Shown here piece by piece: positions 5,111-30,754 of a stretch of 39,336 nucleotides of DNA (positions are counted from its first letter, which is position 1; each line of letters begins with the position of its first letter). The stretch lies in sequence record PV991107.1; one strand, given 5' to 3'. The notes beneath the pieces are model-generated. The model ran no database searches, had not been told where the DNA came from, and worked only from the letters and a program-made list of their open reading frames with translations. A program made the position numbers and the translations under genes. Source of the DNA: a phage.

Positions 5111-7393
5111 ATGGCTAGTAATATTGAATCAGCTCTGGCTAATCGGACTATGGGTCGTGGCAGAGCGCCTGGTAAAACTATCGCCGTCAACTATCAAGCA
5201 GCCAGCGTTCAGGCTCCAACTGGTGACTCCGGTCTGGCTCGTGCGTTAACTAACTTCGTTGAGTCTGGGACAGGATTGTACAAGCAGTTCAAGGACGAGG
5301 AGAAGACCAGAGCTGACGAGCGGTCTAACGAGATTATCCGTAAGCTGACTCCTCAGCAAAGACGTGAGGCTATCCAGAACGGCACATTGCTGTATCAGGA
5401 TGACCCTTACGCTATGGAAGCACTTCGAGTCAAGACTGGTCGTAATGCTGCCTTTGCTGTAGACGACGAGATTAACGTTAAGATTCAGAACGGTGAGTTC
5501 CGTACACGTCAGGACATGGAAGAGTATCGCCACCAGCGACTTCAGGACGCCGCTAAGTCCTATGCTGAAGAGGCGGGTATTAACCCTACCGACGAGTTCT
5601 TCCAGCGTGGATTCAACGATAACATCACGGACCGAAACATCGCTATCTACGGGTCATTCAATAAGTATTTCAGCAAGCAGTCTGAAGAGACAGCAATGTT
5701 GAACACTCGTATTGAGATGAACTCGTTCCTTAACGATGGGAACCTGATGCGTTCACCTGAGTCTGGAAAGACCTTCATGGCCTACCTTCGTGATGGATTG
5801 ACGACTGCTGCTATACCTTCGGACCAGAGAGCACGTGAGGTCATTACCCAGACGGTCCGTGACGCAATCCAGAAGTCAGGAGGCTCAAACTTCCTACAGC
5901 AAGTCCGGGGCGAGCGTATCACCCTTAATGGTGTTGACGCTACCATCGAAGAGATTGTAGGACCTGACGTCTTCAATGCTGCTATGGTTGAGGCCCAAGG
6001 TACTGAGTATAAACTGGTGGCTAAGTATCAGGAAGACTTGTCGTTAGGCGTTCAGTCTGCGATTCTTCAGGATGACCCAACCATCGGTCTGGCCCAGATT
6101 CAGAAACTCAAGGAGCAGAACAACCTGCTTCAGCCGGGTGAAGAACTAACGCCTCAGCGTCAGATGCTTATTAATGCCGAAGCCAGCTTACTGGAAGCGG
6201 TCAAGCGTAAGTCTGCTGAACAGGCAAAGGAGAACACTAAGTTAATCCAGACCCAGAACAAGCAACTGGTCATCGACCAAGTTTATCAGCGACGTCTGGC
6301 TGGAGACAACGTGTCCACCAACTATGAGGACCTTCCGGTCTCTGAATCCACAGGAGAGTTCAAGCGTTCAGACATGAACAACTATGCGTCTGCTAAGCTA
6401 CAGCAGATTGACCAGATGGACATCCCTGAGGCTGCTAAGGACGCACAGAAGGTTGCACTATTAAGAGCTGACACTAACAACGGTCCGTTCCGTAATGCCT
6501 TCCAGACGCTGACTCAGGACGCTGCTGGTGAGTGGCAAGCTGCGGTCATCCGTGGGCAGTACGACCCAGACAAGATGCAACGCTTCGAATCTCTTCGTCG
6601 TGCCTACACTCAGGACCCTTCAAGTTTTTCTGCTCTGTATCCTGACCAAGCTCAGTTGTTCTCTACGTTCGACCAGATGGACAAGATGGGTCTGGACCCT
6701 CAGACGATGATTGAAGCTGATAAGCAAGCTGCAAGTCAAAGCCGTGAGATGCGCATGGAGTCAGACAAGGCGTGGCAGGAGTTGAAGAATGACTCTCGGA
6801 ATAAGGACCTTTCGCGTCTTCCTACGTCTCTGGACGCAAGTGCTCGTAAGGTCTGGGACTCATGGTACTATCGTACAGGTAACGCTGACGCTGCAACTCA
6901 GCAGACTCAACGCTGGCTGAACGAGAACACCGTAACGTTCCAGTCTGAAGGTTCTGACGGTAAATCCATTGGCATGGTGTCCAAGCACCAGCTTATGGTC
7001 GGGGATAACCCAGAGTCGTGGCAGGTGGGTCGAGACATTATCGACACAGCTCGTCAGCAGCTCATTAAGGCCAACCCTTGGGTAGTGAACTCTCAGTTGT
7101 CCGTTGTTGAACAGAACGGCTCTATCTTCCTCCAAGACGCTACGGGGACTATTCGTATTCGCTACGATAAAGAACTTGTAGGTAAACTCTACCGCGAACA
7201 ACAGCAGAAGGCACAAGATGCCGCATACGCTCAGGCAGAACGTGACGCTAACAAGCGAGCGCGTATCGTCGGGACTAAGGCTGCTGGTGACAAACGTCGA
7301 GCTGACCGAGAGGCCAACATCGAGAAGCGCGGAGGGATGTACAATGACGTCTCATTGGAGGGTATCGCAAACGTACTAATTGGTAAGGAGTAA
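5111..7393 (+). CDS. Internal virion protein B (T7 gene 15 homolog)
   Basis: 760-aa ORF, SD AGGAGG upstream; size and position match T7 gp15 (747 aa). Confidence 0.85.
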   Translation: MASNIESALANRTMGRGRAPGKTIAVNYQAASVQAPTGDSGLARALTNFVESGTGLYKQFKDEEKTRADERSNEIIRKLTPQQRREAIQNGTLLYQDDPYAMEALRVKTGRNAAFAVDDEINVKIQNGEFRTRQDMEEYRHQRLQDAAKSYAEEAGINPTDEFFQRGFNDNITDRNIAIYGSFNKYFSKQSEETAMLNTRIEMNSFLNDGNLMRSPESGKTFMAYLRDGLTTAAIPSDQRAREVITQTVRDAIQKSGGSNFLQQVRGERITLNGVDATIEEIVGPDVFNAAMVEAQGTEYKLVAKYQEDLSLGVQSAILQDDPTIGLAQIQKLKEQNNLLQPGEELTPQRQMLINAEASLLEAVKRKSAEQAKENTKLIQTQNKQLVIDQVYQRRLAGDNVSTNYEDLPVSESTGEFKRSDMNNYASAKLQQIDQMDIPEAAKDAQKVALLRADTNNGPFRNAFQTLTQDAAGEWQAAVIRGQYDPDKMQRFESLRRAYTQDPSSFSALYPDQAQLFSTFDQMDKMGLDPQTMIEADKQAASQSREMRMESDKAWQELKNDSRNKDLSRLPTSLDASARKVWDSWYYRTGNADAATQQTQRWLNENTVTFQSEGSDGKSIGMVSKHQLMVGDNPESWQVGRDIIDTARQQLIKANPWVVNSQLSVVEQNGSIFLQDATGTIRIRYDKELVGKLYREQQQKAQDAAYAQAERDANKRARIVGTKAAGDKRRADREANIEKRGGMYNDVSLEGIANVLIGKE

Positions 7394-7397
7394 CATA

Positions 7398-10300
7398 ATG
7401 GCGACTCGTGGTATTCGCAATAACAATCCGGGTAACATCCGGGTAAGTAAGGACCAATGGGAAGGAATGACTGGAGATGATGGTGCATTCGTCACCTTCG
7501 ATAGTCCAGAGTCTGGCGTCCGAGCTTTAGGTAAAAACCTGCTGTCCTACGGTCGCCGAGGTTATGACTCCATCGAGAAGATTATCAACCGATGGGCACC
7601 TCCTAATGAGAACGACACTAAGGCTTATATCGACTCAGTGGTGGCTGCAACTGGTATTCCAGCTACCCAGAGTCTCGACCTATCGGACCCTGACACCCTG
7701 TCTTCTCTGGCTCAAGCTATCAGCTTCCATGAGACAGGCTCCCGGTACGACCCTGAAGTCTATCAGAAGGGAGTCGCACGAGCACTCAATGGCATTAGCC
7801 CAAAGACTCCACCAGTAAGCGCTAACGTATTTGACGCACTCACGGAAGGACTCAAGGCTAAACCTAAAGTAGCTCTTGGTGAGAACCTTCCGACCGCTGC
7901 TGGTCTGAATATTGAGGGTCAAGCACCTGAAGCTCCCAACGAATCGTTCGGTGAGATGTTCTATACGGCTACTGGAGAGACCATGCAGGAACGAGAGGAC
8001 CGCTCTACGTGGTTCGGTTTCGGTGCTGCTACAGAAGCTGAAGTGAAGAACTCTATGGTAGGCGTGGCTATCCGCGCTGGTCAGACCGAGGACTCACTGG
8101 ATGTCATTGGCGATGTGTTTAACCCTACCAGATGGAACAACCATAAGTGGACTCGCGAGGAGCTGGACCAGATTCGTAACGCTGGGGTTCTGCCTCAGTA
8201 TTATGGAGTCATTACTGGTGGGTCTCCTCAGAACCTGACCGAGCTTATTAACTTGGCTCTTGAGAACCAGAAGTTGGACCAAGAGAAGGCCAAGGCTGGG
8301 ACTGGTGCTCAGTTAGCTGCTGGTGTGATTGGCGCTGGTGTAGACCCTCTGACATACGTTCCTATCGCTGGACAGGTTGGTAAAGGCGGTAAGTTGGTCA
8401 ACAAGATGTTCACCGTGGCTGCTCAATCTGGAGCACTGGCTGGTGTGTCCGAGATGGCCCGTACCTCAGTGGCTGGTGGTGATGCTCATGTGGCTGAAGC
8501 TATCCTTGGTGGTGCTCTCTTTGGTGGTGGTATGACTGCTATCGCTGATGGGTTAGGCAGAGCCTTGGGTCGCAACACTAATGAGTTTGCTGGTCCAGCT
8601 ACACGTCTGGAAGCTCGTGAGACCGCTCGTAACGTTGATGGTCAGGACCTGTCTCGTCTCCCTATTCAGGAAGGTGAGCAGACCTTTAGTCATCAAGGCG
8701 TTAAGTTCGCTGACGTTCCGAATGAGCCGGGTAGTGTACGACTGGAAGATGGTTCAATCCTGATTGGTGAAAACCCTCTGAACCCTAAGACACGTCAAGT
8801 CTTTGACGAAGTGATTGAGCCAGAACGTGCCGCTGCTGGTGTGAACCTTGGTGGGCTGACTGAGATTGGCCTGAAGCTGCTTCGGTCAGAGAACCCTGAG
8901 ATTCGTGGAGTCGCTGCTGACTTAGTGCGTTCACCAACTGGTATGCAGTCAGGGGCCTCAGGTAAAATCGGGACCACTGCGTCAGACGTATTTGAGAGAC
9001 TTCGTGCTGTGGACCATCGGTTCTACAACGACATCGACGACGCGGTTACTGAGGCGCTCAAGGACCCATACTTCCAGACAGCATTCTGGCGAGACTCTGG
9101 CGCATTCCGTCAGGACATCTACCAGCGTGTGTCTATGGCTATTGAAGACGGAAGTGGGAACCTGAAGGCTGAACTGACTCCGGGAGAACTGAAAGTATAT
9201 GACCTGCTGAAGAACCAGTTTGACGCCAAGCGTGAGATGATGGAGAACCCGGCGATGTTTGGTCGTCCAGACGCTCAGTCTATCTTTCCGGGTAGCCGCT
9301 TCAAGGGAACCTACGTCCCGCATGTGTATAGCAACCAGATGAAGGAGCTGTACATCAAGGAGCTTGGGAGTCCAGAGGCACTACAGGAGGCCATCAAGAA
9401 GTCATGGTTGACCAGCTATGCGTCTCGACCTGAGGTCAAGAAACGTGTGGACGAGGCACTCTTAGAGGCTGACCCTACGTTGACTCCAGAAGGACTTGCG
9501 GCTGCGGTCGATAAGTACGCCAACGATAAGGCTTATGGTATCTCTCACACCGAGCAGTTCGAGCGTTCATCCGTAATGGAAGAGAACATCAATGGTCTGG
9601 TTGGTCTGGAGAACAACAGCTTCCTTGAGGCTCGTAACCTGTTCGATAGCGATATGTCAATCGTCCTACCTAACGGTCAGACCTTCAGTGTCAACAACCT
9701 GCGTGAGTGGGACATGGACAAGATTGTCCCGGCCTACAACCGTCGAGTTAATGGCGATATTGCTATCATGGCTGGTACAGGCAAGACCACGAAGGATATG
9801 AAGGACTTGGTTGAGACCATGATGAACAAGGCTGGGGATGACGGTAAGTTGAAAGGTGAAGTATCTACCTTACGTGACACCCTGAAGATTCTCACTGGTC
9901 GTGCTCGACGTGATGGTGCTGATGATGCTGCCTTCGCTACCGTGATGCGCACGATGACAGACCTATCGTTCTTCGCTAAGAATGCCTACATGGGTGTTCA
10001 GAACTTAACGGAGATTGGTGGTATGCTGGCTCGTGGCAACGTTCGTGCAATGCTGCATGGAGTCCCAATTTTCCGTGACCTAGCCTTCCGTAACAAGAAG
10101 GTTGGGGCCTCAGAGATTAAGGACCTGCACAATGTTATCTTCGGTAAGGAACTGGATGACTCAATCCGTCCGTCTAAACAGGATGTCATTGACCGTCTGC
10201 GATCTTACAGTGACCTCGGTCGTGGTACAGCTACAGCTCTGGGGACTGCCAAGTATTACACTGGCGAACTTGCAGTACGCTCTCCGTTCACTAAAGTCCT

Positions 10301-11285
10301 CAACGGTACGACCAACTACCTGTTAGATGCTGGACGTCAAGGCTTCCTGTCTGACATCGTGGAGCATAGCCTGACTGGTAGTAAGCGTAAGTTCGATGAC
10401 CGCTGGCTTAAGACCGCTGGTATCTCTGACGAGCAGTGGAAGGGCATTAAGTCCCTCATCCGTGAGTCAGTGACTCGTGGTCCAGACGGGAAGTACACCA
10501 TCAAGGATAAGAAGGCGTTCAGTCAGGACCCAAGGGCTATGGACCTATGGCGTATGGGTGACACCATCGCCGATGAAACGTTACTCCGTCCTCATAAGCT
10601 GTCCAACATGGACGCCAAGGCTTATGGTCCTCTCGCTAAGACTGTCCTTCAGTTTAAGAACTTCGTCATCAAGTCCATCAATGGTCGAACCATGCGAACA
10701 TTCTATAACGCCACGAAGAACAACCGAGCGATGGACGCTGCACTGTCTACTGTGATGTCTATGGGTCTGGCTGGTATCTACTACATGGCTCAGGCGCACG
10801 TCAAGGCTTACGCTATGCAGGACGGTCGAGACCGAGATTATCTCAAGCAAGCTCTGGACCCAACGATGATTGGCTATGCGGCCCTGTCACGTAGTTCACA
10901 TCTGGGTGGACCACTTGGGGTAGCTAACATTCTAGGTGGCATCGCTGGGTATGAGGACACTAAGATGCTCCGTTCGTCTATCCTCCCGCGTTCACCTACA
11001 GAGAAACCCGAACGTGCCATCTCATATGGCGCGGCTACAAGTGACCCTGTGATGAATGTCGTTGGTAACTTCTTGGAGCAGGTCCCGGCTTTCGGCTATG
11101 CTGCTAACGTTGGCGCTTCGGCATACAACTTGGCTGGCTACCTCAAGGCTGATACTCGTGTCAACGAGCGTGACTACATGACCGGGATGTATAATACGTT
11201 CCGTGAACTGGTTCCGAACGACCCGATTACTCAGAAGTTGCTACTGGGAACGTTTGAGGAGCAAGGTATCCACATCAAGGACTAA
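7398..11285 (+). CDS. Internal virion protein C/D (T7 gene 16 homolog) with a non-T7-like N-terminal domain
   Basis: ORF-track frame 7380-11285 trimmed to ATG after AAGGAG; from about residue 200 onward many blocks match T7 gp16 as recalled (TRWN..W..EEL, GAGVDPL.YVP, RLEARETARN, RSPTGMQSGASGK, GTYVPHVY, ENNSFLEARNLFDSD, LDPTMI..AALSRSS). Confidence 0.9.
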   Translation: MATRGIRNNNPGNIRVSKDQWEGMTGDDGAFVTFDSPESGVRALGKNLLSYGRRGYDSIEKIINRWAPPNENDTKAYIDSVVAATGIPATQSLDLSDPDTLSSLAQAISFHETGSRYDPEVYQKGVARALNGISPKTPPVSANVFDALTEGLKAKPKVALGENLPTAAGLNIEGQAPEAPNESFGEMFYTATGETMQEREDRSTWFGFGAATEAEVKNSMVGVAIRAGQTEDSLDVIGDVFNPTRWNNHKWTREELDQIRNAGVLPQYYGVITGGSPQNLTELINLALENQKLDQEKAKAGTGAQLAAGVIGAGVDPLTYVPIAGQVGKGGKLVNKMFTVAAQSGALAGVSEMARTSVAGGDAHVAEAILGGALFGGGMTAIADGLGRALGRNTNEFAGPATRLEARETARNVDGQDLSRLPIQEGEQTFSHQGVKFADVPNEPGSVRLEDGSILIGENPLNPKTRQVFDEVIEPERAAAGVNLGGLTEIGLKLLRSENPEIRGVAADLVRSPTGMQSGASGKIGTTASDVFERLRAVDHRFYNDIDDAVTEALKDPYFQTAFWRDSGAFRQDIYQRVSMAIEDGSGNLKAELTPGELKVYDLLKNQFDAKREMMENPAMFGRPDAQSIFPGSRFKGTYVPHVYSNQMKELYIKELGSPEALQEAIKKSWLTSYASRPEVKKRVDEALLEADPTLTPEGLAAAVDKYANDKAYGISHTEQFERSSVMEENINGLVGLENNSFLEARNLFDSDMSIVLPNGQTFSVNNLREWDMDKIVPAYNRRVNGDIAIMAGTGKTTKDMKDLVETMMNKAGDDGKLKGEVSTLRDTLKILTGRARRDGADDAAFATVMRTMTDLSFFAKNAYMGVQNLTEIGGMLARGNVRAMLHGVPIFRDLAFRNKKVGASEIKDLHNVIFGKELDDSIRPSKQDVIDRLRSYSDLGRGTATALGTAKYYTGELAVRSPFTKVLNGTTNYLLDAGRQGFLSDIVEHSLTGSKRKFDDRWLKTAGISDEQWKGIKSLIRESVTRGPDGKYTIKDKKAFSQDPRAMDLWRMGDTIADETLLRPHKLSNMDAKAYGPLAKTVLQFKNFVIKSINGRTMRTFYNATKNNRAMDAALSTVMSMGLAGIYYMAQAHVKAYAMQDGRDRDYLKQALDPTMIGYAALSRSSHLGGPLGVANILGGIAGYEDTKMLRSSILPRSPTEKPERAISYGAATSDPVMNVVGNFLEQVPAFGYAANVGASAYNLAGYLKADTRVNERDYMTGMYNTFRELVPNDPITQKLLLGTFEEQGIHIKD

Positions 11286-11303
11286 ACTATCACTATAGGA
11301 AAC
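11281..11303 (+). promoter_or_regulatory. Phage RNAP promoter (phi17-like), overlapping gene 16 stop codon
   Basis: ACTAAACTATCACTATAGGAAAC; perfect consensus -17 to +2; followed by a hairpin at 11300-11330. Confidence 0.8.
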
Positions 11304-11349
11304 GGGAGGCGCTACCATAGGTCTCCGTTTAAATAACAAAGGAGGCATA

Positions 11350-13881
11350 ATGTCCACGATTACACAATTCCCTTCAGGAAACACTCAGTACAGGATTGAG
11401 TTCGACTACCTAGCCAGAACGTTTGTTGTTGTTACGCTGGTGAATAGCTCTAACCCTACCCTGAACCGTGTACTGGAAGTTGGTCGAGATTACCGATTCC
11501 TTAACCCAACGATGATTGAGATGTTGGTGGACCAATCAGGTTTCGACATCGTTCGTATTCACCGTCAGACTGGAACTGACTTAGTGGTAGACTTCAGGAA
11601 TGGCTCAGTGTTGACAGCTAGTGACCTGACCAATTCAGAGCTTCAGGCTATCCATATTGCAGAAGAAGGTCGAGACCAAACGGTTGACTTAGCGAAGGAA
11701 TATGCCGATGCTGCTGGTAGCTCTGCTGGCAACGCTAAGGATAGCGAGGACGAAGCACGCCGAATCGCTGAGAGTATCAGGGAAGCTGGTCTAATTGGCT
11801 ATATTACCCGTCGCTCCTTCGAGAAAGGCTACAACGTTACAACATGGAGCGAGGTCCTGCTATGGGAAGAGGATGGTGATTATTACCGCTGGGATGGTAC
11901 GCTTCCAAAGAACGTTCCTGCTGGTTCAACTCCTGAAACTTCCGGTGGGATTGGTTTAGGTGCGTGGGTTAGTGTTGGTGATGCTGCTTTAAGAAGTCAG
12001 ATTTCAAACCCGGAAGGGGCAATACTCTACCCGGAATTGCAGATGGCAAGATGGCGTGATGAGGGTGATGTTCGAGGCTGGGGTGCTAAAGGGGATGGTG
12101 TAACAGATAGTACGGAGAATATAGCTGCTTCACTAAATTCTCAAAAAGCTGTCGTAGCATCAGAAGGTGTATTCTCTAGTTCTGGTATTAATAGTAATTA
12201 CTGTAACTTAGACGGTAGAGGCAGTGGTGTACTAAGTCACCGTTCAAGTACAGGTAACTACTTAGTATTTAACAATCTACGCTCAGGTCGCTTAAGTAAT
12301 ATTACGGTAGAAAGTAATAAGGCGACCGATACCGCTCAAGGGCAGCAGGTATCTCTTGCTGGTGGCAGTGATGTTACTATAAGTGATGTTAATTTCTCAA
12401 ACGTTAAGGGCGCTGGTTTCAGTTTAATCACATACCCTAATGATGCACCCTCTGATGGGCTTATGATTAAAGGCATTCGAGGTAGCTACTCCGGCTATGC
12501 TACTAATAAGGCGGCTGGATGCATACTTGCTGATTCCTCAGTTAACTCCCTCATAAATAACGTCATTGCTAAGAACTACCCTCAGTTCGGGGCTGTAGAA
12601 CTGAAAGGTACAGCCAGTTATAACATAGTCAGCAATGTCATAGGGGCAGACTGCCAGCATGTAACTTACAACGGTACAGAAGGGTCAATAGCTCCCTCTA
12701 ACAACCTTATCAATGGGGTAGTGGCTAATAATCCTAAATATGCAGCGGTTGTTGCAGGCAAAGGTAGTACCAACTTAATCTCCGATGTGCTTGTAGATTT
12801 CTCAACCTCTGATGCTAGGCAGGCTCATGGTGTTACAGTAGAAGGTTCTGATAACGTCATAAATAATGTGCTTATGTCAGGGTGTGATGGTACTAACTCT
12901 TTAGGGCAAGCTCAAACTGCTACAATTGCACGCTTTATAGATACAGCTAATAACAACTATGCGTCTGTATTTCCTAGCTACAGTGCTACAGGTGTTATTA
13001 CTTTCGAATCAGGTTCTACCCGTAACTTCGTAGAGGTAAAGCATCCGGGAAGGAGAAACGACCTTCTCAGTGCTACTGGTACTATTGAAGGTACAGTTAC
13101 TATTGACGGCACTAGTAATAGCAACGTAGTGCACGCTCCTGCATTAGGACAGTACATAGGCAGTATGTCCGGTAGGTTCGAATGGCGGATTAAGTCCATG
13201 TCACTTCCATCAGGGGTTCTTACCTCTGCGGATAAGTACAGGATGCTTGCCGATGGGGCTGTGTCATTAGCTGTAGGTGGAGGTACTTCTTCTCAAGTGC
13301 GCCTGTTCACTTCTGACGGCACTTATCGGAATATATCACTTACTGGAGGTAACGTGCGTCTTCCTACCAGTAGCACAGGTTATTTGCAGTTAGGTTCTAA
13401 TGCAATGACCCCAGATAGTACTAATACATACGCATTAGGTTCCGTAAGTCGAGCATGGTCTGGCGGTTTTACTCAATCAGCATTCACTGTTGTCTCAGAT
13501 GCTAGGGATAAAACAGAGCCTCTTAATATCTCAGATGCTTTACTGGATGCTTGGTCTGAAGTTGACTTTGTGCAGTTTCAGTACTTGGACCGAATTGAGG
13601 AGAAGGGTGCAGACTCAGCTAGATGGCACTTCGGCATCATCGCTCAGCGAGCTAAGGAGGCCTTCGAACGTCACGGTATAGATGCACATCGCTATGGCTT
13701 CCTGTGCTTCGACAGTTGGGATGATGTATACGAGGAAGATGCCAATGGCTCTCGTAAACTGATTACACCAGCAGGTTCCCGCTACGGTATTCGTTACGAG
13801 GAAGTACTGATATTAGAGGCTGCGTTGATGCGGCGTACTATTAAGCGTATGCAGGAAGCATTAGCTGTTATGTCTAAGTGA
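11350..13881 (+). CDS. Tail fibre / tailspike (T7 gene 17 N-terminal adaptor domain + beta-helix-like central domain + C-terminal intramolecular chaperone-like domain)
   Basis: 843-aa ORF; N-terminal ~150 aa resemble T7 gp17 (..FDYLAR.FVVVTL..DYRF..); central region rich in short N/S/G/V repeats typical of parallel beta-helix enzymes; C-terminal block SDARDK...GIIAQRAKEAFERHG...GIRYEE resembles Peptidase S74 autoproteolytic chaperone domains. Confidence 0.85.
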   Translation: MSTITQFPSGNTQYRIEFDYLARTFVVVTLVNSSNPTLNRVLEVGRDYRFLNPTMIEMLVDQSGFDIVRIHRQTGTDLVVDFRNGSVLTASDLTNSELQAIHIAEEGRDQTVDLAKEYADAAGSSAGNAKDSEDEARRIAESIREAGLIGYITRRSFEKGYNVTTWSEVLLWEEDGDYYRWDGTLPKNVPAGSTPETSGGIGLGAWVSVGDAALRSQISNPEGAILYPELQMARWRDEGDVRGWGAKGDGVTDSTENIAASLNSQKAVVASEGVFSSSGINSNYCNLDGRGSGVLSHRSSTGNYLVFNNLRSGRLSNITVESNKATDTAQGQQVSLAGGSDVTISDVNFSNVKGAGFSLITYPNDAPSDGLMIKGIRGSYSGYATNKAAGCILADSSVNSLINNVIAKNYPQFGAVELKGTASYNIVSNVIGADCQHVTYNGTEGSIAPSNNLINGVVANNPKYAAVVAGKGSTNLISDVLVDFSTSDARQAHGVTVEGSDNVINNVLMSGCDGTNSLGQAQTATIARFIDTANNNYASVFPSYSATGVITFESGSTRNFVEVKHPGRRNDLLSATGTIEGTVTIDGTSNSNVVHAPALGQYIGSMSGRFEWRIKSMSLPSGVLTSADKYRMLADGAVSLAVGGGTSSQVRLFTSDGTYRNISLTGGNVRLPTSSTGYLQLGSNAMTPDSTNTYALGSVSRAWSGGFTQSAFTVVSDARDKTEPLNISDALLDAWSEVDFVQFQYLDRIEEKGADSARWHFGIIAQRAKEAFERHGIDAHRYGFLCFDSWDDVYEEDANGSRKLITPAGSRYGIRYEEVLILEAALMRRTIKRMQEALAVMSK

Positions 13882-14180: not shown

Positions 14181-14440
14181 CGCAGATGGACTTAGAGAAG
14201 TTCCTCTTAATGCTAGATACTGAACGTGCTCGACTCATGCTGCAAGACTTGCGGGATGACACTAAGCGTTCACCTCAGCTTTACAACGCCATTGAGAAGC
14301 TACTGGCTCGTCACAACTTTGTGTTAAGCAAGGTGTCTGTGGACGAGAAGACGCTGGCTGATATGGAGGCCCTGAACGCAGAGTACGATAAGGTGCTTTC
14401 AGCGACTGAGGATAATGACACCGGGTATGGTGTTCAATAA
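14177..14440 (+). CDS. Terminase small subunit / DNA maturase A (T7 gene 18 position)
   Basis: 87 aa (T7 gp18 89 aa); start overlaps holin stop (ATGA); synteny. Confidence 0.65.
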   Translation: MTQMDLEKFLLMLDTERARLMLQDLRDDTKRSPQLYNAIEKLLARHNFVLSKVSVDEKTLADMEALNAEYDKVLSATEDNDTGYGVQ

Positions 14441-14444
14441 GTGT

Positions 14445-14490
14445 TAGACTCAAGGTCATTACTATATGTAGTGGCCTTTATGGTTAACAC
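14445..14490 (+). promoter_or_regulatory. RNase III-like processing hairpin (R18.5-like), member of a 4-copy motif family
   Basis: TAGACTCAAGGTCATTACTATATGTAGTGGCCTTTATGGTTAACAC; shares GACTCAAGGTCAT...GTGGCCTTTATG core with sites at 19084, 23271, 30712. Confidence 0.5.
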
Positions 14491-14541
14491 TAACTAGTGG
14501 AGGCGACTCTACGTGAAATCTGATAAACCGGGAGGGCAACT

Positions 14542-17598: not shown

Positions 17599-17812
17599 TC
17601 TCACAGTTCAAGAACCTCAAGTCTCCCCCATAGGCCCTCTTTCAGTCAGACCAAAGGCCCTACCCGTTGCTGCTCCTTGCAGTCACAGCCAGTCTATCAT
17701 AAGGTTAGACCGATGGTCAAGACGTTAGGTCAACGATAGGTCTAGGCTATGGCTTAGGGAAGGACGATAGGTAGTGACTATGGGTCTGTCTCTGAGTCTC
17801 TATCTGTATAAC
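17599..17812 (+). repeat. Candidate direct terminal repeat (single collapsed copy) containing the genome left end
   Basis: Starts TCTCACAGT...CCCCCATAGG and ends ..GTCTGTCTCTGAGTCTCTATCTGTATAACC, paralleling the first and last bases of the T7 160-bp terminal repeat as I recall them; flanked on both sides by short-repeat arrays as in T7. Confidence 0.45.
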
Positions 17813-17975
17813 CATAGGTCCTACAACCTACAGTCCTACAACCATAGGTCCTACACCTACAGTCCTACAACCTACAGTCCTACAACCTACAGTAACAACC
17901 ATAAGACACTCACATCCTACAGTCATAGACCTACAGTTAATAGACACAAAGCTATAGACTTAAGGTCACAGACAT
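17813..17975 (+). repeat. Array of about 10-12 degenerate 8-15 bp tandem repeats (CCTACAGT / CCATAGGT / CTTAAGGT)
   Basis: CATAGGTCCTACAAC CTACAGTCCTACAAC CATAGGTCCTACAC CTACAGTCCTACAAC CTACAGTCCTACAAC CTACAGTAACAAC ...; analogous to the CCTAAAG arrays next to the T7 terminal repeat. Confidence 0.8.
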
Positions 17976-20021: not shown

Positions 20022-22703
20022 ATGAGCGTCATCTCTATTGACAAACACGACTTCTCTGATGTGTCGAACGCCATTGAGCCGTTTAACCTGCTGGCTGACC
20101 ACTACGGGCAAGACCTTGCAGTCAAACAGCTTCAGCTTGAGCATGAGGCATATACAGAAGGCGAGCGACGTTTCATCAAGAACCTTGAGCGCCAGACCGA
20201 GCGCGGGGAACTGGCAGACAATCAGGTCGCCAAGCCTTTGATGCAGACTCTGGTGCCTGAGATTGCGCAAGCAGTCAAGGAGTGGCACGAAGGCCAAGAC
20301 GGGAAGCTGTCAACCTCTCGTCCTAGCGTAGCGTTCACCATGTTGAGCACTGAAGAGAAGGCCGTAAAGGACCGCTCTCTGCGCATCTCCTGTGAGTCTG
20401 CTGCGGTTATCATACTGAAGGTCATTCTCTCCAAGCTGGTCAAGCCTGAAGGGATACCGATTACACCGATGGCCTCCGCGATAGGTCGCACACTTGAGGA
20501 CGAAATCCGCTTCGGTCGCATCCGTGACAAAGAGAAAGAGCACTTCAAGAAGGCGATAGCTGATAACCTGAATAAGCGGGCCGGGGCGTCATACAAGAAA
20601 GCCTACATGCAAGCGGTCGAGGCGTCCATGCTGGAGCAAGGCCAACTGGAAGATGCGTGGGGGACTTGGAGTCCTACAGAGGCTGTCCACGTTGGCATCA
20701 AGATGCTCGAGATTGTCATCCAGTCAACACAACTGGTCGAGCTTAAGCGGTACGGTGCTGGTAATGCAGCGGCTGACGTAGAGATGGTCCACCTGTCAGA
20801 CTTCTGGGTCAAGAAGATGGCACAACGAGGATTCAGCCTTGCGGGTATCGCTCCAGTCTACCAGCCTTGCGTCGTTCCACCTAAGCCGTGGACTGGTGTC
20901 GTAGGTGGTGGGTACTGGGCCAAAGGTCGCAGACCGTTACCATTGATTCGCTTAGGGTCTAAGTCTGCGGTAGCACGTTATGAAGACGTATACATGCCTG
21001 AAGTCTATGACGCTGTGAACATCATTCAGAATACACCTTGGAAAGTTAACAAGAAGGTTCTGGACGTGGTGAACATGGTCGAGAAGCTGAACAACACGCC
21101 TATTGATGACATCCCTCAGATGGAGCCACTGAAGCCTGAGGACTATGCGGGTGAGACTGAAGAAGAACTCAAGGCATGGAAGAAGGCTGCTGCTGGTATC
21201 TATCGCCGCGAGAAGGCCAGACAGTCACGCAGATTATCACTGAGCTTTATCGTTAACCAAGCAAACAAGTTCTCTCAGTTCAAGGCCATCTGGTTCCCGT
21301 ACAACATGGATTGGCGAGGTCGTGTCTACGCTGTCCCGATGTTCAACCCTCAGGGTAACGACATGCAGAAGGGTCTACTGACTCTGGCGGTCGGAAAGCC
21401 TATCGGGGCGGATGGTTTCAAATGGCTTAAAGTCCACGGTGCAAACTGTGCGGGTGTCGATAAAGTCACCTTCGAGGAGCGCATCAAGTGGGTGGAAGAC
21501 AACCACGAAAACATCATGGCTGCTGCTAAGGCACCGATGGATAGTATTGAGTGGTGGGGCAAGTTAGACTCTCCGTTCTGTTTCCTCGCGTTCTGCTTCG
21601 AGTATGCTGGCGTAATGCACCACGGCCTGTCTTACTCCTGCTCGCTGCCGATAGCGTTCGATGGGTCCTGCTCTGGTATTCAGCACTTCAGTGCGATGCT
21701 TCGTGACCACATCGGTGGACATGCAGTAAACCTGACGCCATCCGGTAAGGTACAAGACATCTACCGCATTGTGTCTGACCGCATTGAGGAGGCGCTTAAA
21801 GTCCTGCTGGTTAACGGTACGGACAACGAGATGGTGACTCACGAGGACAAGAAAACTGGTGAGATTACCGAACGTCTCAAGCTGGGGACACGAGAGCTGG
21901 CCCGTCAGTGGCTGCAATTCGGTATGTCTCGCTCGGTCACTAAGCGTTCGGTCATGACTCTGGCCTACGGGTCGAAAGAGTATGGGTTCGCCGACCAAGT
22001 GTTCGAAGACACCGTGATGCCAGCGATTGACTCCGGTAAGGGAGCAATGTTCACCGAGCCAAGCCAAGCGTCTCGCTTCATGGCTAAGATGATTTGGGAA
22101 GCTGTGAGTGTGACAGTAGTTGCTGCGGTTGACGCGATGAAGTGGCTTCAAGGTGCCGCTAAGCTGCTGGCTGCTGAAGTGAAGGACAAGAAGACTGGTG
22201 AAATCCTGAAGCCATGCCTTCCGGTACACTGGGTCACACCTGATGGGTTCCCGGTCTGGCAGGAATACCGCAAGAAGGATACCACTCGTCTGAACCTGAT
22301 GTTCTTAGGGTCCTTCAACCTTCAACCTACGGTCAACAAAGGTACGAAGAAAGAGCTGGACAAGCACAAGCAGGAGTCAGGCATTAGCCCGAACTTCGTC
22401 CACTCACAAGATGGTAGCCACCTCCGCAAGACTGTAGTCCACACTCACCGAAAGTATGGCGTGATGTCATTCGCAGTGATTCACGATAGCTTCGGGACCA
22501 TCCCGGCTGACGCTGAGTATCTGTTCCGTGGCGTCCGTGAGACGATGGTAGAGACTTACCGCGATAACGATGTGCTGCTTGACTTCTACGAGCAGTTTGA
22601 ATACCAGCTTCATGAAAGTCAGCGCGACAAGTTGCCTGAGCTTCCGAAGAAAGGTAAACTGAATATCGAAGACATCTTGTCTTCAGACTTTGCATTCGCT
22701 TAA
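20022..22703 (+). CDS. Single-subunit DNA-directed RNA polymerase (T7 gene 1 homolog)
   Basis: 893 aa (T7 RNAP 883 aa); extensive similarity including C-terminal ..HDSFGTIPADA..VRETMV.TY..DFYEQF..QLHESQ.DK.P.LP.KG.LN..DIL.SDFAFA. Confidence 0.97.
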   Translation: MSVISIDKHDFSDVSNAIEPFNLLADHYGQDLAVKQLQLEHEAYTEGERRFIKNLERQTERGELADNQVAKPLMQTLVPEIAQAVKEWHEGQDGKLSTSRPSVAFTMLSTEEKAVKDRSLRISCESAAVIILKVILSKLVKPEGIPITPMASAIGRTLEDEIRFGRIRDKEKEHFKKAIADNLNKRAGASYKKAYMQAVEASMLEQGQLEDAWGTWSPTEAVHVGIKMLEIVIQSTQLVELKRYGAGNAAADVEMVHLSDFWVKKMAQRGFSLAGIAPVYQPCVVPPKPWTGVVGGGYWAKGRRPLPLIRLGSKSAVARYEDVYMPEVYDAVNIIQNTPWKVNKKVLDVVNMVEKLNNTPIDDIPQMEPLKPEDYAGETEEELKAWKKAAAGIYRREKARQSRRLSLSFIVNQANKFSQFKAIWFPYNMDWRGRVYAVPMFNPQGNDMQKGLLTLAVGKPIGADGFKWLKVHGANCAGVDKVTFEERIKWVEDNHENIMAAAKAPMDSIEWWGKLDSPFCFLAFCFEYAGVMHHGLSYSCSLPIAFDGSCSGIQHFSAMLRDHIGGHAVNLTPSGKVQDIYRIVSDRIEEALKVLLVNGTDNEMVTHEDKKTGEITERLKLGTRELARQWLQFGMSRSVTKRSVMTLAYGSKEYGFADQVFEDTVMPAIDSGKGAMFTEPSQASRFMAKMIWEAVSVTVVAAVDAMKWLQGAAKLLAAEVKDKKTGEILKPCLPVHWVTPDGFPVWQEYRKKDTTRLNLMFLGSFNLQPTVNKGTKKELDKHKQESGISPNFVHSQDGSHLRKTVVHTHRKYGVMSFAVIHDSFGTIPADAEYLFRGVRETMVETYRDNDVLLDFYEQFEYQLHESQRDKLPELPKKGKLNIEDILSSDFAFA

Positions 22704-23249: not shown

Positions 23250-23272
23250 CCTAAACTATCACTATAGGATTA
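23250..23272 (+). promoter_or_regulatory. Phage RNAP promoter (phi1.1-like)
   Basis: CCTAAACTATCACTATAGGATTA; consensus -16 to +2. Confidence 0.8.
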
Positions 23273-23312
23273 GACTCAAGGTCATGACTCAAAGTCGTGG
23301 CCTTCATGATTA
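23271..23312 (+). promoter_or_regulatory. RNase III-like processing hairpin (R1.1-like)
   Basis: TAGACTCAAGGTCATGACTCAAAGTCGTGGCCTTCATGATTA. Confidence 0.5.
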
Positions 23313-23342
23313 ACCCTAACTCATTCAATCAGGAGCTACACC

Positions 23343-30543: not shown

Positions 30544-30708
30544 TTGCTAAGAAAACTTAAAGCTCGCTACCATCGGTTCATGTACAAATGGTGGAGTGAT
30601 GAAGCAACCTGCCTGTCCAACATTCTGGGAGACCAGAGGTTCGACTCTAAGGCATGGAAGAAAGCTAACCGGAAGTTTATGTATCACTTCTTGCGTACAG
30701 ACTTCTAG
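30544..30708 (+). CDS. Small basic hypothetical protein (about 54 aa, TTG start) between primase-helicase and DNA polymerase
   Basis: ORF-track frame 30511-30708 begins inside gene 4; trimmed to TTG preceded by AAGGAGG. Confidence 0.3.
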   Translation: MLRKLKARYHRFMYKWWSDEATCLSNILGDQRFDSKAWKKANRKFMYHFLRTDF

Positions 30709-30711
30709 GTC

Positions 30712-30754
30712 TAGACTCAAGGTCATTCACATCGAGTGGCCTTTATGATTAGAC
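30712..30754 (+). promoter_or_regulatory. RNase III-like processing hairpin (R4.7-like)
   Basis: TAGACTCAAGGTCATTCACATCGAGTGGCCTTTATGATTAGAC. Confidence 0.5.

Follow-up and report, generated by a model that had tools for sequence, protein, structure and literature searches.

Gene 17 and its genomic setting

The window analysed here is the whole 39,336-nt stretch of phage DNA in record PV991107.1, and all coordinates below refer to its plus strand. Gene 17 occupies positions 11350..13881, stop codon included, starts with ATG and encodes an 843-residue tailspike precursor of 90.4 kDa. A ribosome-binding site, AAGGAGG (11339..11345), lies 4 nt 5' of the ATG. The perfect consensus CTAAACTATCACTATAGG (11282..11299) is found 51 nt upstream of the start codon, where it overlaps the end of gene 16. 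This sequence occurs 11 times in the window, always on the plus strand, compared to 0.06 copies expected by chance, and its likeness to T7-type class III promoters suggests that it serves as a promoter for the phage RNA polymerase. Scans for sigma-70 promoters and intrinsic terminators between 11100 and 14600 gave nothing above shuffled expectation.

The late genes follow the usual T7-type order, running from tail tube, nozzle, gp15 and gp16 through gene 17 to holin, small terminase, Rz and large terminase. No second spike gene was found beside gene 17 or among the open reading frames of at least 120 codons. The gene 17 product matches phrog_14895, "tail spike protein", with 1297 bits, and the domain assignments below place it in an already known type of protein with solved structures, the K5 (heparosan) capsule lyases.

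The N-terminal region resembles that of K1F gp17

Residues 1-150 (11350..11799) comprise a T7 gp17-type tail-attachment, or anchor, domain and the helical segment that follows it. The Pfam family Phage_T7_tail (PF03906) matches aa 10-115 with 58.6 bits against a cut-off of 25.2 (E 7.7e-16), and the gene lies, as expected by synteny, after gene 16 and ahead of the holin and terminase genes. In a search of the PDB, alignment to the T7 gp17 chains 7boz, 8dsp and 8e4g was limited to aa 6-116. The sequence-only reading had proposed that the first ~150 residues are a conserved gp17 N-terminus and that the rest of the protein is unrelated to the T7 fibre. The anchor and the unrelated remainder both stand, but the extent was set too short: aa 1-150 are 98.0% identical to K1F gp17, and the K1F-like stretch continues to ~aa 225-253.

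The anchor is followed by a small Tail_spike_N domain (PF18668; aa 156-211, 11815..11982), which scores 69.4 bits against a Pfam cut-off of 25 (E 2.9e-19) and which the sequence-only reading had not mentioned. Its PDB matches include 4oj5, 5w6h, 6nw9 and 9occ. The domain is also present in K1F gp17 (98.4% identity) and in CBA120-type tailspikes, and the Gamaleyavirus K5 lyase carries a more distant version (54.5% identity in UE-S5b).

The central region is predicted to be a heparosan lyase

We assign aa 254 to ~560 (12109..13029; the C-terminal limit is approximate) to the catalytic right-handed beta-helix of a K5 (heparosan) lyase. Using phmmer, residues 242-716 align without gaps to residues 68-542 of the crystallised K5 lyase KflA (2x3h_A) at 90.7% identity (431/475, E 1.2e-276), in agreement with the beta-helix depolymerase centre that had been predicted from repeat motifs. 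Each of those motifs is present where it was quoted, with NVIAKN starting at aa 404, NVIGAD at 429, NLINGV at 452, NLISDV at 475 and NVINNV at 502. The N[VL]I spacing of 25, 23, 23 and 27 residues corresponds to approximately one beta-helix rung each.

The C-terminal stalk of the mature spike, aa ~561-715 (13030..13494), is predicted to form an interdigitated triple-stranded beta-helix/beta-prism whose folding would depend on the chaperone. It aligns with the C-terminal part of 2x3h through the last residue of that chain, and over aa 684-716 there are also alignments with the stalks that precede the cleavage sites in endoNF 3gw6, 6eu4, 7y5s and T5 pb1 4uw8. The KflA fold, a beta-helix with an interdigitated stalk, has been described (PMC8822698). 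A single-sequence AlphaFold2 model of the full-length protein was unusable (mean pLDDT 33.4, pTM 0.26) and we drew no structural conclusion from it; the fold was therefore assigned from sequence identity to chains of solved structure. These identities imply a trimeric, single-stranded parallel beta-helix with a triple-stranded stalk, and by homology the enzyme should be a polysaccharide lyase, acting by beta-elimination, rather than a hydrolase.

Four residues, F413, E417, K419 and Y440 (12586..12669), are candidates for the active site. They are identical in 4/4 aligned K5 lyases, namely the present protein, vB_EcoP-R1, K1-5 gp46 and UE-S5b. In K1-5 gp46/KflA numbering they are F202, E206, K208 and Y229, which are reportedly the KflA active-site residues (Thompson et al. 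2010, JBC 285:23963). Their candidacy as catalytic residues is based on this correspondence together with perfect conservation. R490 presumably corresponds to KflA R279, a further putative active-site residue. The position is occupied by Ser in the UE-S5b protein, so R490 may be non-essential or may not belong to the active site.

The C-terminus carries an S74 chaperone with a predicted autocleavage site

The last 128 residues, aa 716-843 (13495..13878, 14.8 kDa), form a Peptidase S74 intramolecular chaperone domain. Peptidase_S74 (PF13884) matches aa 716-776 over profile positions 1-57 of 58 with 52.7 bits against a Pfam cut-off of 22 (E 5.1e-14), confirming the earlier proposal of such a domain from SDARDK at 13495, the codon for aa 716. 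The chaperone fold that extends past the 58-residue Pfam core, a mixed alpha/beta region and a terminal coiled-coil helix, was matched at the sequence level. In the GA-1 chaperone chain 3gud, which has 129 residues, approximately the first 120 align to aa 716-834 (E 8.7e-24), and aa 716-843 align to endoNF 3gw6 (E 5.2e-18) over both halves, including the terminal helix. Both alignments begin at aa 716, the first residue of the chaperone. The domain is 100% identical to those of UE-S5b and vB_EcoP-R1, 95.3% identical to that of K1-5 gp46 and 37.3% identical to that of K1F.

The predicted autoproteolysis motif, S716-D-A-R-D-K721 (13495..13512), would supply Ser716 as the nucleophile and Lys721 as the activating residue. 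Both residues are invariant, occupying the same columns as S911/K916 of K1F (endosialidase-F) and S505/K510 of K1-5 gp46 as well as those of vB_EcoP-R1 and UE-S5b; the motif at the corresponding GA-1 site is SDERHK. The K1F record annotates a mature protein of aa 2-910 and a chaperone of aa 911-1064, which places cleavage between residues 910 and 911, and the 2x3h chain terminates at the Ser equivalent to Ser716. The scissile bond here is most likely V715-S716, and Ser would therefore depart with the chaperone. The mechanism of autocleavage and the role of the Ser/Lys pair have been described, and K5 and K1-5 are among the phages presumed to use it (PMC4690869, section 3.7 for the mechanism). 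By homology, we infer that the gene 17 product also trimerises and cleaves itself. Candidates for the upstream "sensor" Arg and for the stalk Asp, which would complete the active site between subunits, are R701 and D689. Both are conserved among K5 lyases, and R701 falls one residue off the endoNF Arg in an ungapped alignment.

Gene 17 is a mosaic of a K1F-type anchor and a lyase cassette

Comparisons with named spikes point to two sources for gene 17. K1F gp17 (endoNF, 1064 aa) comes from the same genus and has the same gene position and the same order of anchor, depolymerase and cleaved S74 chaperone (PMC13564897). K1F is described as a mono-RBP phage whose spike consists of an anchor, a catalytic domain and a cleaved CTD (PMC13352976; PMC13564897). 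The two proteins are 98% identical over aa 1-211 and 88% identical over aa 212-253. In contrast, the catalytic part of K1F gp17 is a sialidase that cuts the alpha-2,8-polysialic acid of the K1 capsule, and it aligns to that of gene 17 at 25% identity with many gaps.

The lyase portion finds its relatives elsewhere. K1-5 gp46, a 632-residue precursor equivalent to KflA and annotated as a K5 lyase in AY370674, is 91.6% identical over aa 254-716 and 95.3% identical over aa 717-843, and KflA of coliphage K5A (2x3h) differs at 44/475 positions over aa 242-716. These SP6-like Vectrevirus proteins have no more than a short peptide at the N-terminus and rely on a separate adaptor protein for attachment, and in K1-5 gp46 adjoins an endosialidase spike (PMC5380687). 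In gene 17, by contrast, the cassette is fused to a 225-250-residue T7 gp17/K1F-type anchor plus Tail_spike_N and makes up the sole spike. The closest source of the cassette is the 784-residue "K5 lyase" of Gamaleyavirus UE-S5a/b, UE-M3 and UE-M6, which matches aa 254-716 at 97.0% identity and the chaperone at 100%; within the aligned stretch, its DNA is identical to the window from approximately gene nt 683 on. The UE phages belong to the Schitoviridae and have another N-terminal attachment region (26% identity over aligned anchor residues), and their K5 lyase gene adjoins an endosialidase gene. The Gamaleyavirus K5 lyase has been detected in virion proteomes (PMC11927229).

The DNA alignment, megablast limits and module identities locate the neck and recombination junction to aa 212-253 (11983..12108). 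Megablast matches span gene nt 1-759 for K1F, 615-2532 for UE-S5b and 762-2517 for K1-5. The DNA alignment switches from K1F-like to K5-lyase cassette around gene nt 680, and residual K1F homology ends in a shared GAKGDGVTD motif at approximately gene nt 759. GC content is 0.444 over gene nt 676-2145 compared to 0.499 in the window. By these alignments gene 17 is a mosaic of a K1F-type anchor (aa 1 to ~225, 98% identical to K1F gp17) and a lyase-plus-chaperone cassette that shares 97-100% of its residues with its N4-like Gamaleyavirus equivalent and 92-95% with K1-5 gp46. One cassette, with ~92-100% identity, is found on three attachment modules (Kayfunavirus, Vectrevirus and N4-like Gamaleyavirus). 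The gene is a textbook example of tailspike cassette exchange between phage families, with the junction in or adjoining the shared GAKGDGVTD motif.

The complete gene is also present in other phages. At least 80% of it is matched, at 95-98.5% nucleotide identity, in 16 phage records in the databases, and those examined are Kayfunavirus or Kayfunavirus-sized; 14 full-length records are 94.8-97.4% identical at the nucleotide level across the whole gene. The Kayfunavirus relatives IME177, vB_EcoP-R1, PDP21P1, AN24P4 and the PM131 group share the length, architecture and neighbourhood of gene 17. Hosts of the closest phages are recorded as "Escherichia coli", with no capsule type given. The majority of GenBank copies are annotated "hypothetical protein", and the present assignment corrects this gap for the near-identical copies so labelled. 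A megablast search of 5,426 complete E. coli genomes detected no copy of the gene, chromosomal or prophage. ElmA is a chromosomal K5 lyase.

The closest protein of known structure is 9vvr_A, a "Tail spike protein" of equal length (843 aa) and architecture with 97.3% identity over its full length. The two differ by point substitutions only, at 23/843 positions, all of them in aa 310-747. PDB entry 9vvr contains 18 such chains, consistent with six trimers, and by homology we would expect six spikes per virion here as well. A full-text search for "9VVR" returned unrelated papers and none that describes this structure.

Gene 17 probably encodes the single, K5-specific spike of the phage

We estimate a probability of about 0.93 that the gene 17 product is the sole receptor-binding tailspike of this K1F-like, T7-type podovirus (genus Kayfunavirus), in which it would take the place that the endosialidase spike has in K1F, with the K5 capsule as its target. 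The sequence-only reading had suggested a depolymerase spike for a capsule, O-antigen or other surface polysaccharide. That suggestion holds, and 91-97% identity to K5 lyases narrows the predicted enzyme to a K5 capsule lyase and, by homology, the probable receptor to the E. coli K5 capsule (heparosan).

Some 23-44 substitutions might retain the fold yet retarget the spike to another capsule or to O antigen, or turn the lyase into a hydrolase. The location of the changes could be read this way, because 22 of the 23 differences from 9vvr_A lie in aa 310-699, in the catalytic domain and stalk, and the 44 differences from 2x3h fall within aa 242-716. For the UE phages, too, it has been considered that a few substitutions might alter host range (PMC11927229). 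Yet the catalytic domain is 91-97% identical to annotated or demonstrated K5 lyases, F413, E417, K419 and Y440, the candidates for catalysis, are retained, and the substitutions are mostly conservative (V/I, S/T, A/T), which makes a shift in specificity or chemistry very unlikely. We regard as least probable of all the possibility that the protein is an adhesin that binds its polysaccharide with little or no turnover, as has been suggested for a distant relative, the tail fibre of ES17. This fibre is structurally like the K5 lyase binding domain, binds heparan sulfate proteoglycans and yielded no detectable capsule depolymerase activity (PMC7885116). However, ES17-TFP is remote from KflA, with a structural match of E = 4e-12 and the fibre of another phage as its best BLAST relative (PMC7885116), whereas the gene 17 product is more than 90% identical to an active enzyme and has the candidate catalytic residues intact.

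The presence of Tail_spike_N raises the question of whether the gene 17 product is the primary spike of a branched, two-spike system, with aa 156-211 as the site at which a second receptor-binding protein docks. PF18668-family domains do occur in the N-terminal regions of spikes from the multi-spike phage CBA120 (TSP1, 4oj5; tailspike proteins 3 and 4, 5w6f and 5w6h), and KP32-type phages have branching domains directly after the anchor (PMC13352976). The branching domain in the literature, though, has a T4gp10-like XD2/XD3 fold, which PF18668 may not share. Moreover, the genes immediately after gene 17 are those for holin, small terminase, Rz and large terminase, with no other spike-sized open reading frame nearby, and its aa 1-253 are also found in K1F gp17, the spike of a phage reported to have a simple mono-RBP system (PMC13352976). 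With no second spike gene beside gene 17 or among the open reading frames of at least 120 codons, and an N-terminus that matches a mono-RBP phage, we rejected the branched arrangement, which we consider even less probable than altered specificity.

A single K5-lyase spike would be expected to act as follows. Transcription of gene 17 would be driven by its own phage-polymerase promoter. The 90-kDa precursor would trimerise, with the C-terminal 128-residue S74 chaperone nucleating folding of the interdigitated stalk. In a correctly formed trimer, Ser716 activated by Lys721 would cut between V715 and S716, freeing the 14.8-kDa chaperone and leaving a 75.6-kDa mature spike. Six trimers would attach to the tail through the gp17-type N-terminal anchor, and the phage could then tunnel through the capsule down to the outer membrane. 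We propose that host range is set by expression of the K5 capsule, because the spike would mediate this tunnelling.

On the basis of homology, the host-range determinant of the phage is a K5-capsule lyase, and K5-capsulated E. coli are thus its expected hosts. Such strains include many extra-intestinal pathogens and the probiotic Nissle 1917. This result is of practical use and offers nothing new conceptually; the spike may be a ready source of a heparosan/heparan-cutting enzyme. Chemically, the K5 polysaccharide corresponds to the precursor of heparan sulfate before sulfation. Work cited in PMC7885116 reports that K5 lyase cleaves unsulfated heparan sulfate domains. Because of these two properties, the spike might also bind epithelial proteoglycans. 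It is conceivable, though we consider it unlikely, that the spike additionally tethers the virion to gut or urinary epithelium by way of heparan sulfate proteoglycans, a "mucosa-homing" like that of ES17. If so, tethering by a true K5 lyase would place the phage where K5-capsulated E. coli live.

Domain composition of the gene 17 tailspike

The tailspike gene 17 occupies 11350-13881 on the + strand and encodes 843 codons, with an ATG start preceded by AAGGAGG. A sequence-only reading had proposed that its product joins a T7 gp17-type adaptor to a beta-helix depolymerase and an S74 chaperone, and a check of the ORF found every motif it cited at the implied position. NVIAKN, NVIGAD, NLINGV, NLISDV and NVINNV, which are beta-helix-type motifs, lie at aa 404, 429, 452, 475 and 502, and the 23-27-residue spacing of these N[VL]I motifs equals one parallel beta-helix rung; SDARDK is found at aa 716 (nt 13495). 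Judged against curated Pfam cut-offs, three matches were each well over: Phage_T7_tail at aa 10-115 (58.6 bits vs 25.2), Peptidase_S74 at aa 716-776 (52.7 bits vs 22) and Tail_spike_N (PF18668) at aa 156-211 (69.4 bits vs 25), the last being absent from the earlier account. Residues 209-843 also match the 632-position PHROGs profile phrog_14895, 'tail spike protein', end to end with 1297 bits.

We then compared the product with solved structures. A PDB sequence search showed that it differs at 23 positions (97.3% identity) over its whole length from 9vvr_A, an 843-residue 'Tail spike protein'. The entry holds 18 such chains, compatible with six trimers, and a literature search for it found no paper. 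Residues 242-716 align without gaps to 2x3h, the 'K5 lyase' KflA of coliphage K5A, with 431/475 identities (90.7%). Because this search settles the point, we identify the central part as a K5 lyase, and the proposed beta-helix depolymerase centre is supported. T7 gp17 chains align to aa 6-116 only; this agrees with the Pfam match in placing a T7 gp17-type domain at the N-terminus, and the remainder of the spike is therefore unrelated to the T7 fibre, as had been claimed. A single-sequence AlphaFold model had a pLDDT of 33.4, and our reading of the fold does not use it.

Thompson et al. reportedly proposed in 2010 that F202, E206, K208 and Y229 form the active site of KflA. The same residues of gp46, the equivalent protein of phage K1-5, align to F413, E417, K419 and Y440 of gene 17, and these candidate active-site residues do not vary among the four K5 lyases compared. 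R279 of KflA, corresponding to R490, is said to have been named in that work as a fifth residue; the Gamaleyavirus K5 lyase has Ser at this position, so we gave R490 no weight.

C-terminal chaperone and predicted cleavage site

Residues 716-843 align from residue one to the GA-1 neck appendage chaperone domain 3gud (E 8.7e-24), with SDERHK of GA-1 opposite SDARDK, and the endosialidase-F chaperone 3gw6 also aligns from the first residue. Together with the Peptidase_S74 match, these alignments confirm the C-terminal intramolecular chaperone. In the S74 mechanism, a Lys five residues downstream activates the Ser hydroxyl, an Arg of a neighbouring chain completes the active site once the triple beta-helix has folded correctly, and the Ser departs with the chaperone after cleavage (PMC4690869, section 3.7); phages K5 and K1-5 are named among those presumed to cleave in this way (PMC4690869). 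Ser716 and Lys721 are invariant in a five-protein alignment, in the same columns as Ser911/Lys916 of K1F gp17 (the endosialidase endoNF) and Ser505/Lys510 of K1-5 gp46. By homology, the predicted scissile bond is V715|S716, and cleavage there would leave a mature protein of 75.6 kDa and release a chaperone of 14.8 kDa (computed masses). In the RefSeq record of K1F, aa 2-910 are annotated as mature spike and aa 911-1064 as chaperone. The last residue of the deposited KflA chain is the Ser equivalent to Ser716, so the Ser may either stay or leave, a minor point. R701 and D689 could serve as the sensor Arg and the Asp, but the alignment is shifted by one residue against endoNF.

Mosaic origin of gene 17

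Megablast of gene 17 against 50,697 phage records revealed three nested layers. Gene nt 1 to ~633 is 94-97% identical to many Kayfunavirus phages bearing other spikes, from E. coli, Salmonella Typhi, Enterobacter and Klebsiella hosts, and nt 1-759 is ~97% identical to K1F and relatives. The K5 lyase genes of K1-5, K5A and other Vectrevirus phages match gene nt 762-2517 at ~91%; the N4-like Gamaleyavirus phages UE-S5a/b, UE-M3 and UE-M6 have a 'K5 lyase' that matches nt 615-2532 at 95.9%. Protein identities across aa 1-150, 151-211, 212-253, 254-716 and 717-843 were 98.0, 98.4, 88.1, 25.3 and 37.3% with K1F gp17, and 26.1, 54.5, 90.5, 97.0 and 100% with the UE-S5b lyase. K1-5 gp46 gave 33.3% (6 aa aligned), no alignment, 35.3, 91.6 and 95.3% over the same segments. 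In the junction DNA alignment, the sequence passes from K1F-like to UE-S5b-identical near gene nt 680 (~aa 226), and the final K1F-shared stretch stops in the codons for GAKGDGVTD, which reads GAAGDATTD in K1-5 gp46. The lyase part (12025-13494) has a GC content of 0.444 vs 0.499 window-wide, and 12001-13000 is the lowest 1-kb bin (0.432), which fits a horizontally acquired, mobile cassette. Mild interest attaches only to this very clean exchange across three phage families, to the poor labelling of the deposited copies and to what the Tail_spike_N domain does.

Genome context

The genome in the window is of T7 type and belongs to the genus Kayfunavirus; its first 25 kb is 96.1% identical to Escherichia phage vB_EcoP-R1 across 97% of the length. 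Gene 17 follows the genes for tail tube, nozzle, gp15 and gp16 and precedes those for holin, small terminase, Rz and large terminase. Gene 17 has a perfect copy of the 18-nt consensus CTAAACTATCACTATAGG at 11282-11299, with its start codon 51 nt farther downstream. The window contains 11 copies, all on the + strand (4006, 11282, 17002, 19931, 23251, 24973, 26394, 28760, 35024, 37851 and 38847), vs 0.06 expected by chance; they are presumably promoters for the phage's own T7-type RNA polymerase, encoded at 20022-22703. No host-type promoter or terminator signals above chance were found around gene 17. In the mechanical ORF list, gene 16 (7380-11285) has a TTG start, 1301 aa and an overlap with the end of gene 15. 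The homologue annotated in vB_EcoP-R1 has 1295 aa and matches an ATG six codons downstream (MATRGIRNN...), which is probably the true start.

Proposed function and alternatives

What we observe is the domain composition, close identity to proteins that have been characterised or solved, key-residue conservation, context and mosaicism. On all testable criteria, the product falls among the K5 lyase tailspikes of KflA type that carry an S74 chaperone, and it would work as they do. With its gp17 anchor, Tail_spike_N domain, lyase and chaperone, it is the K5 analogue of K1F gp17. The architecture is already represented by one full-length solved structure and many deposited genomes. We put the probability that gene 17 encodes a K5-capsule lyase tailspike with a self-cleaving chaperone, standard for its class, at roughly 0.93; the sequence-only interpretation is supported, and open to sharpening. 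What we infer is its activity, its processing, the stoichiometry and a host range that depends on K5. The precursor would trimerise with the aid of its own chaperone, which would remove itself when the interdigitated stalk is formed. Mature spikes would dock on the tail through the gp17-type anchor, and the beta-helix would bind K5 capsule and degrade it by beta-elimination, giving the virion access to the outer membrane.

Three alternatives share the small remainder. Specificity or chemistry could have shifted relative to K5 lyases, or the spike could be an adhesin that only binds, like the fibre of ES17, a remotely related protein with affinity for heparan sulfate (PMC7885116). In a third reading, gene 17 would encode the primary spike in a branched system with two spikes, but we disfavour this because K1F, a mono-RBP phage, has the same N-terminus (PMC13352976) and a second spike gene was not found among the window ORFs of at least 120 aa.

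Related records and intergenic elements

Sixteen phage records cover at least 80% of gene 17 at 95-98.5% nucleotide identity, including IME177, vB_EcoP-R1, PDP21P1, AN24P4 and the PM131 group. Near-identical products are mostly labelled 'hypothetical protein' in Kayfunavirus deposits (MZ398247 for IME177, OQ703102 for vB_EcoP-R1, MZ234011/22/23/44-47 and KX669227), and the lyase cassette is labelled 'K5 lyase' in Gamaleyavirus and K1-5 records; the gap is in annotation, not in biology. No near-identical copy was found in 5,426 complete E. coli genomes, as expected because the gene belongs to virulent phages. In Escherichia phage ZG49 (NC_047777.1, 3001-6241), the homologue is annotated as two CDS because of a 711-nt internal tandem duplication, either genuine or an assembly artefact, in which gene nt 1340-2050 is present twice. 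The first CDS lacks the stalk end and chaperone; the second begins within the beta-helix and has both. In UE-S5b (PP301341.1, 1-5918), an endosialidase gene lies directly upstream of the K5 lyase gene, a K1 + K5 dual-spike pairing also found in the unrelated SP6-like phage K1-5.

A conserved leader of ~50 nt, TTAGACTCAAGGTCAT...GTGGCCTTTATG, lies between genes 18 and 18.5 (14440-14491), with related copies at intergenic sites 23265-23321 and 30706-30751. The first folds as a stable hairpin (MFE -33.5 kcal/mol, z -3.1) and is possibly a site of RNase III processing comparable to T7 R18.5. About five tandem 15-nt repeats, GTCCTACAACCTACA, occupy 17810-17945, in the non-coding stretch separating the large terminase gene from the early genes. 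T7-type genomes have short repeat arrays close to their ends, and the similar position of this array suggests that the physical ends are at around 17.0-17.9 kb, with the window being the complete genome in circularly permuted form.
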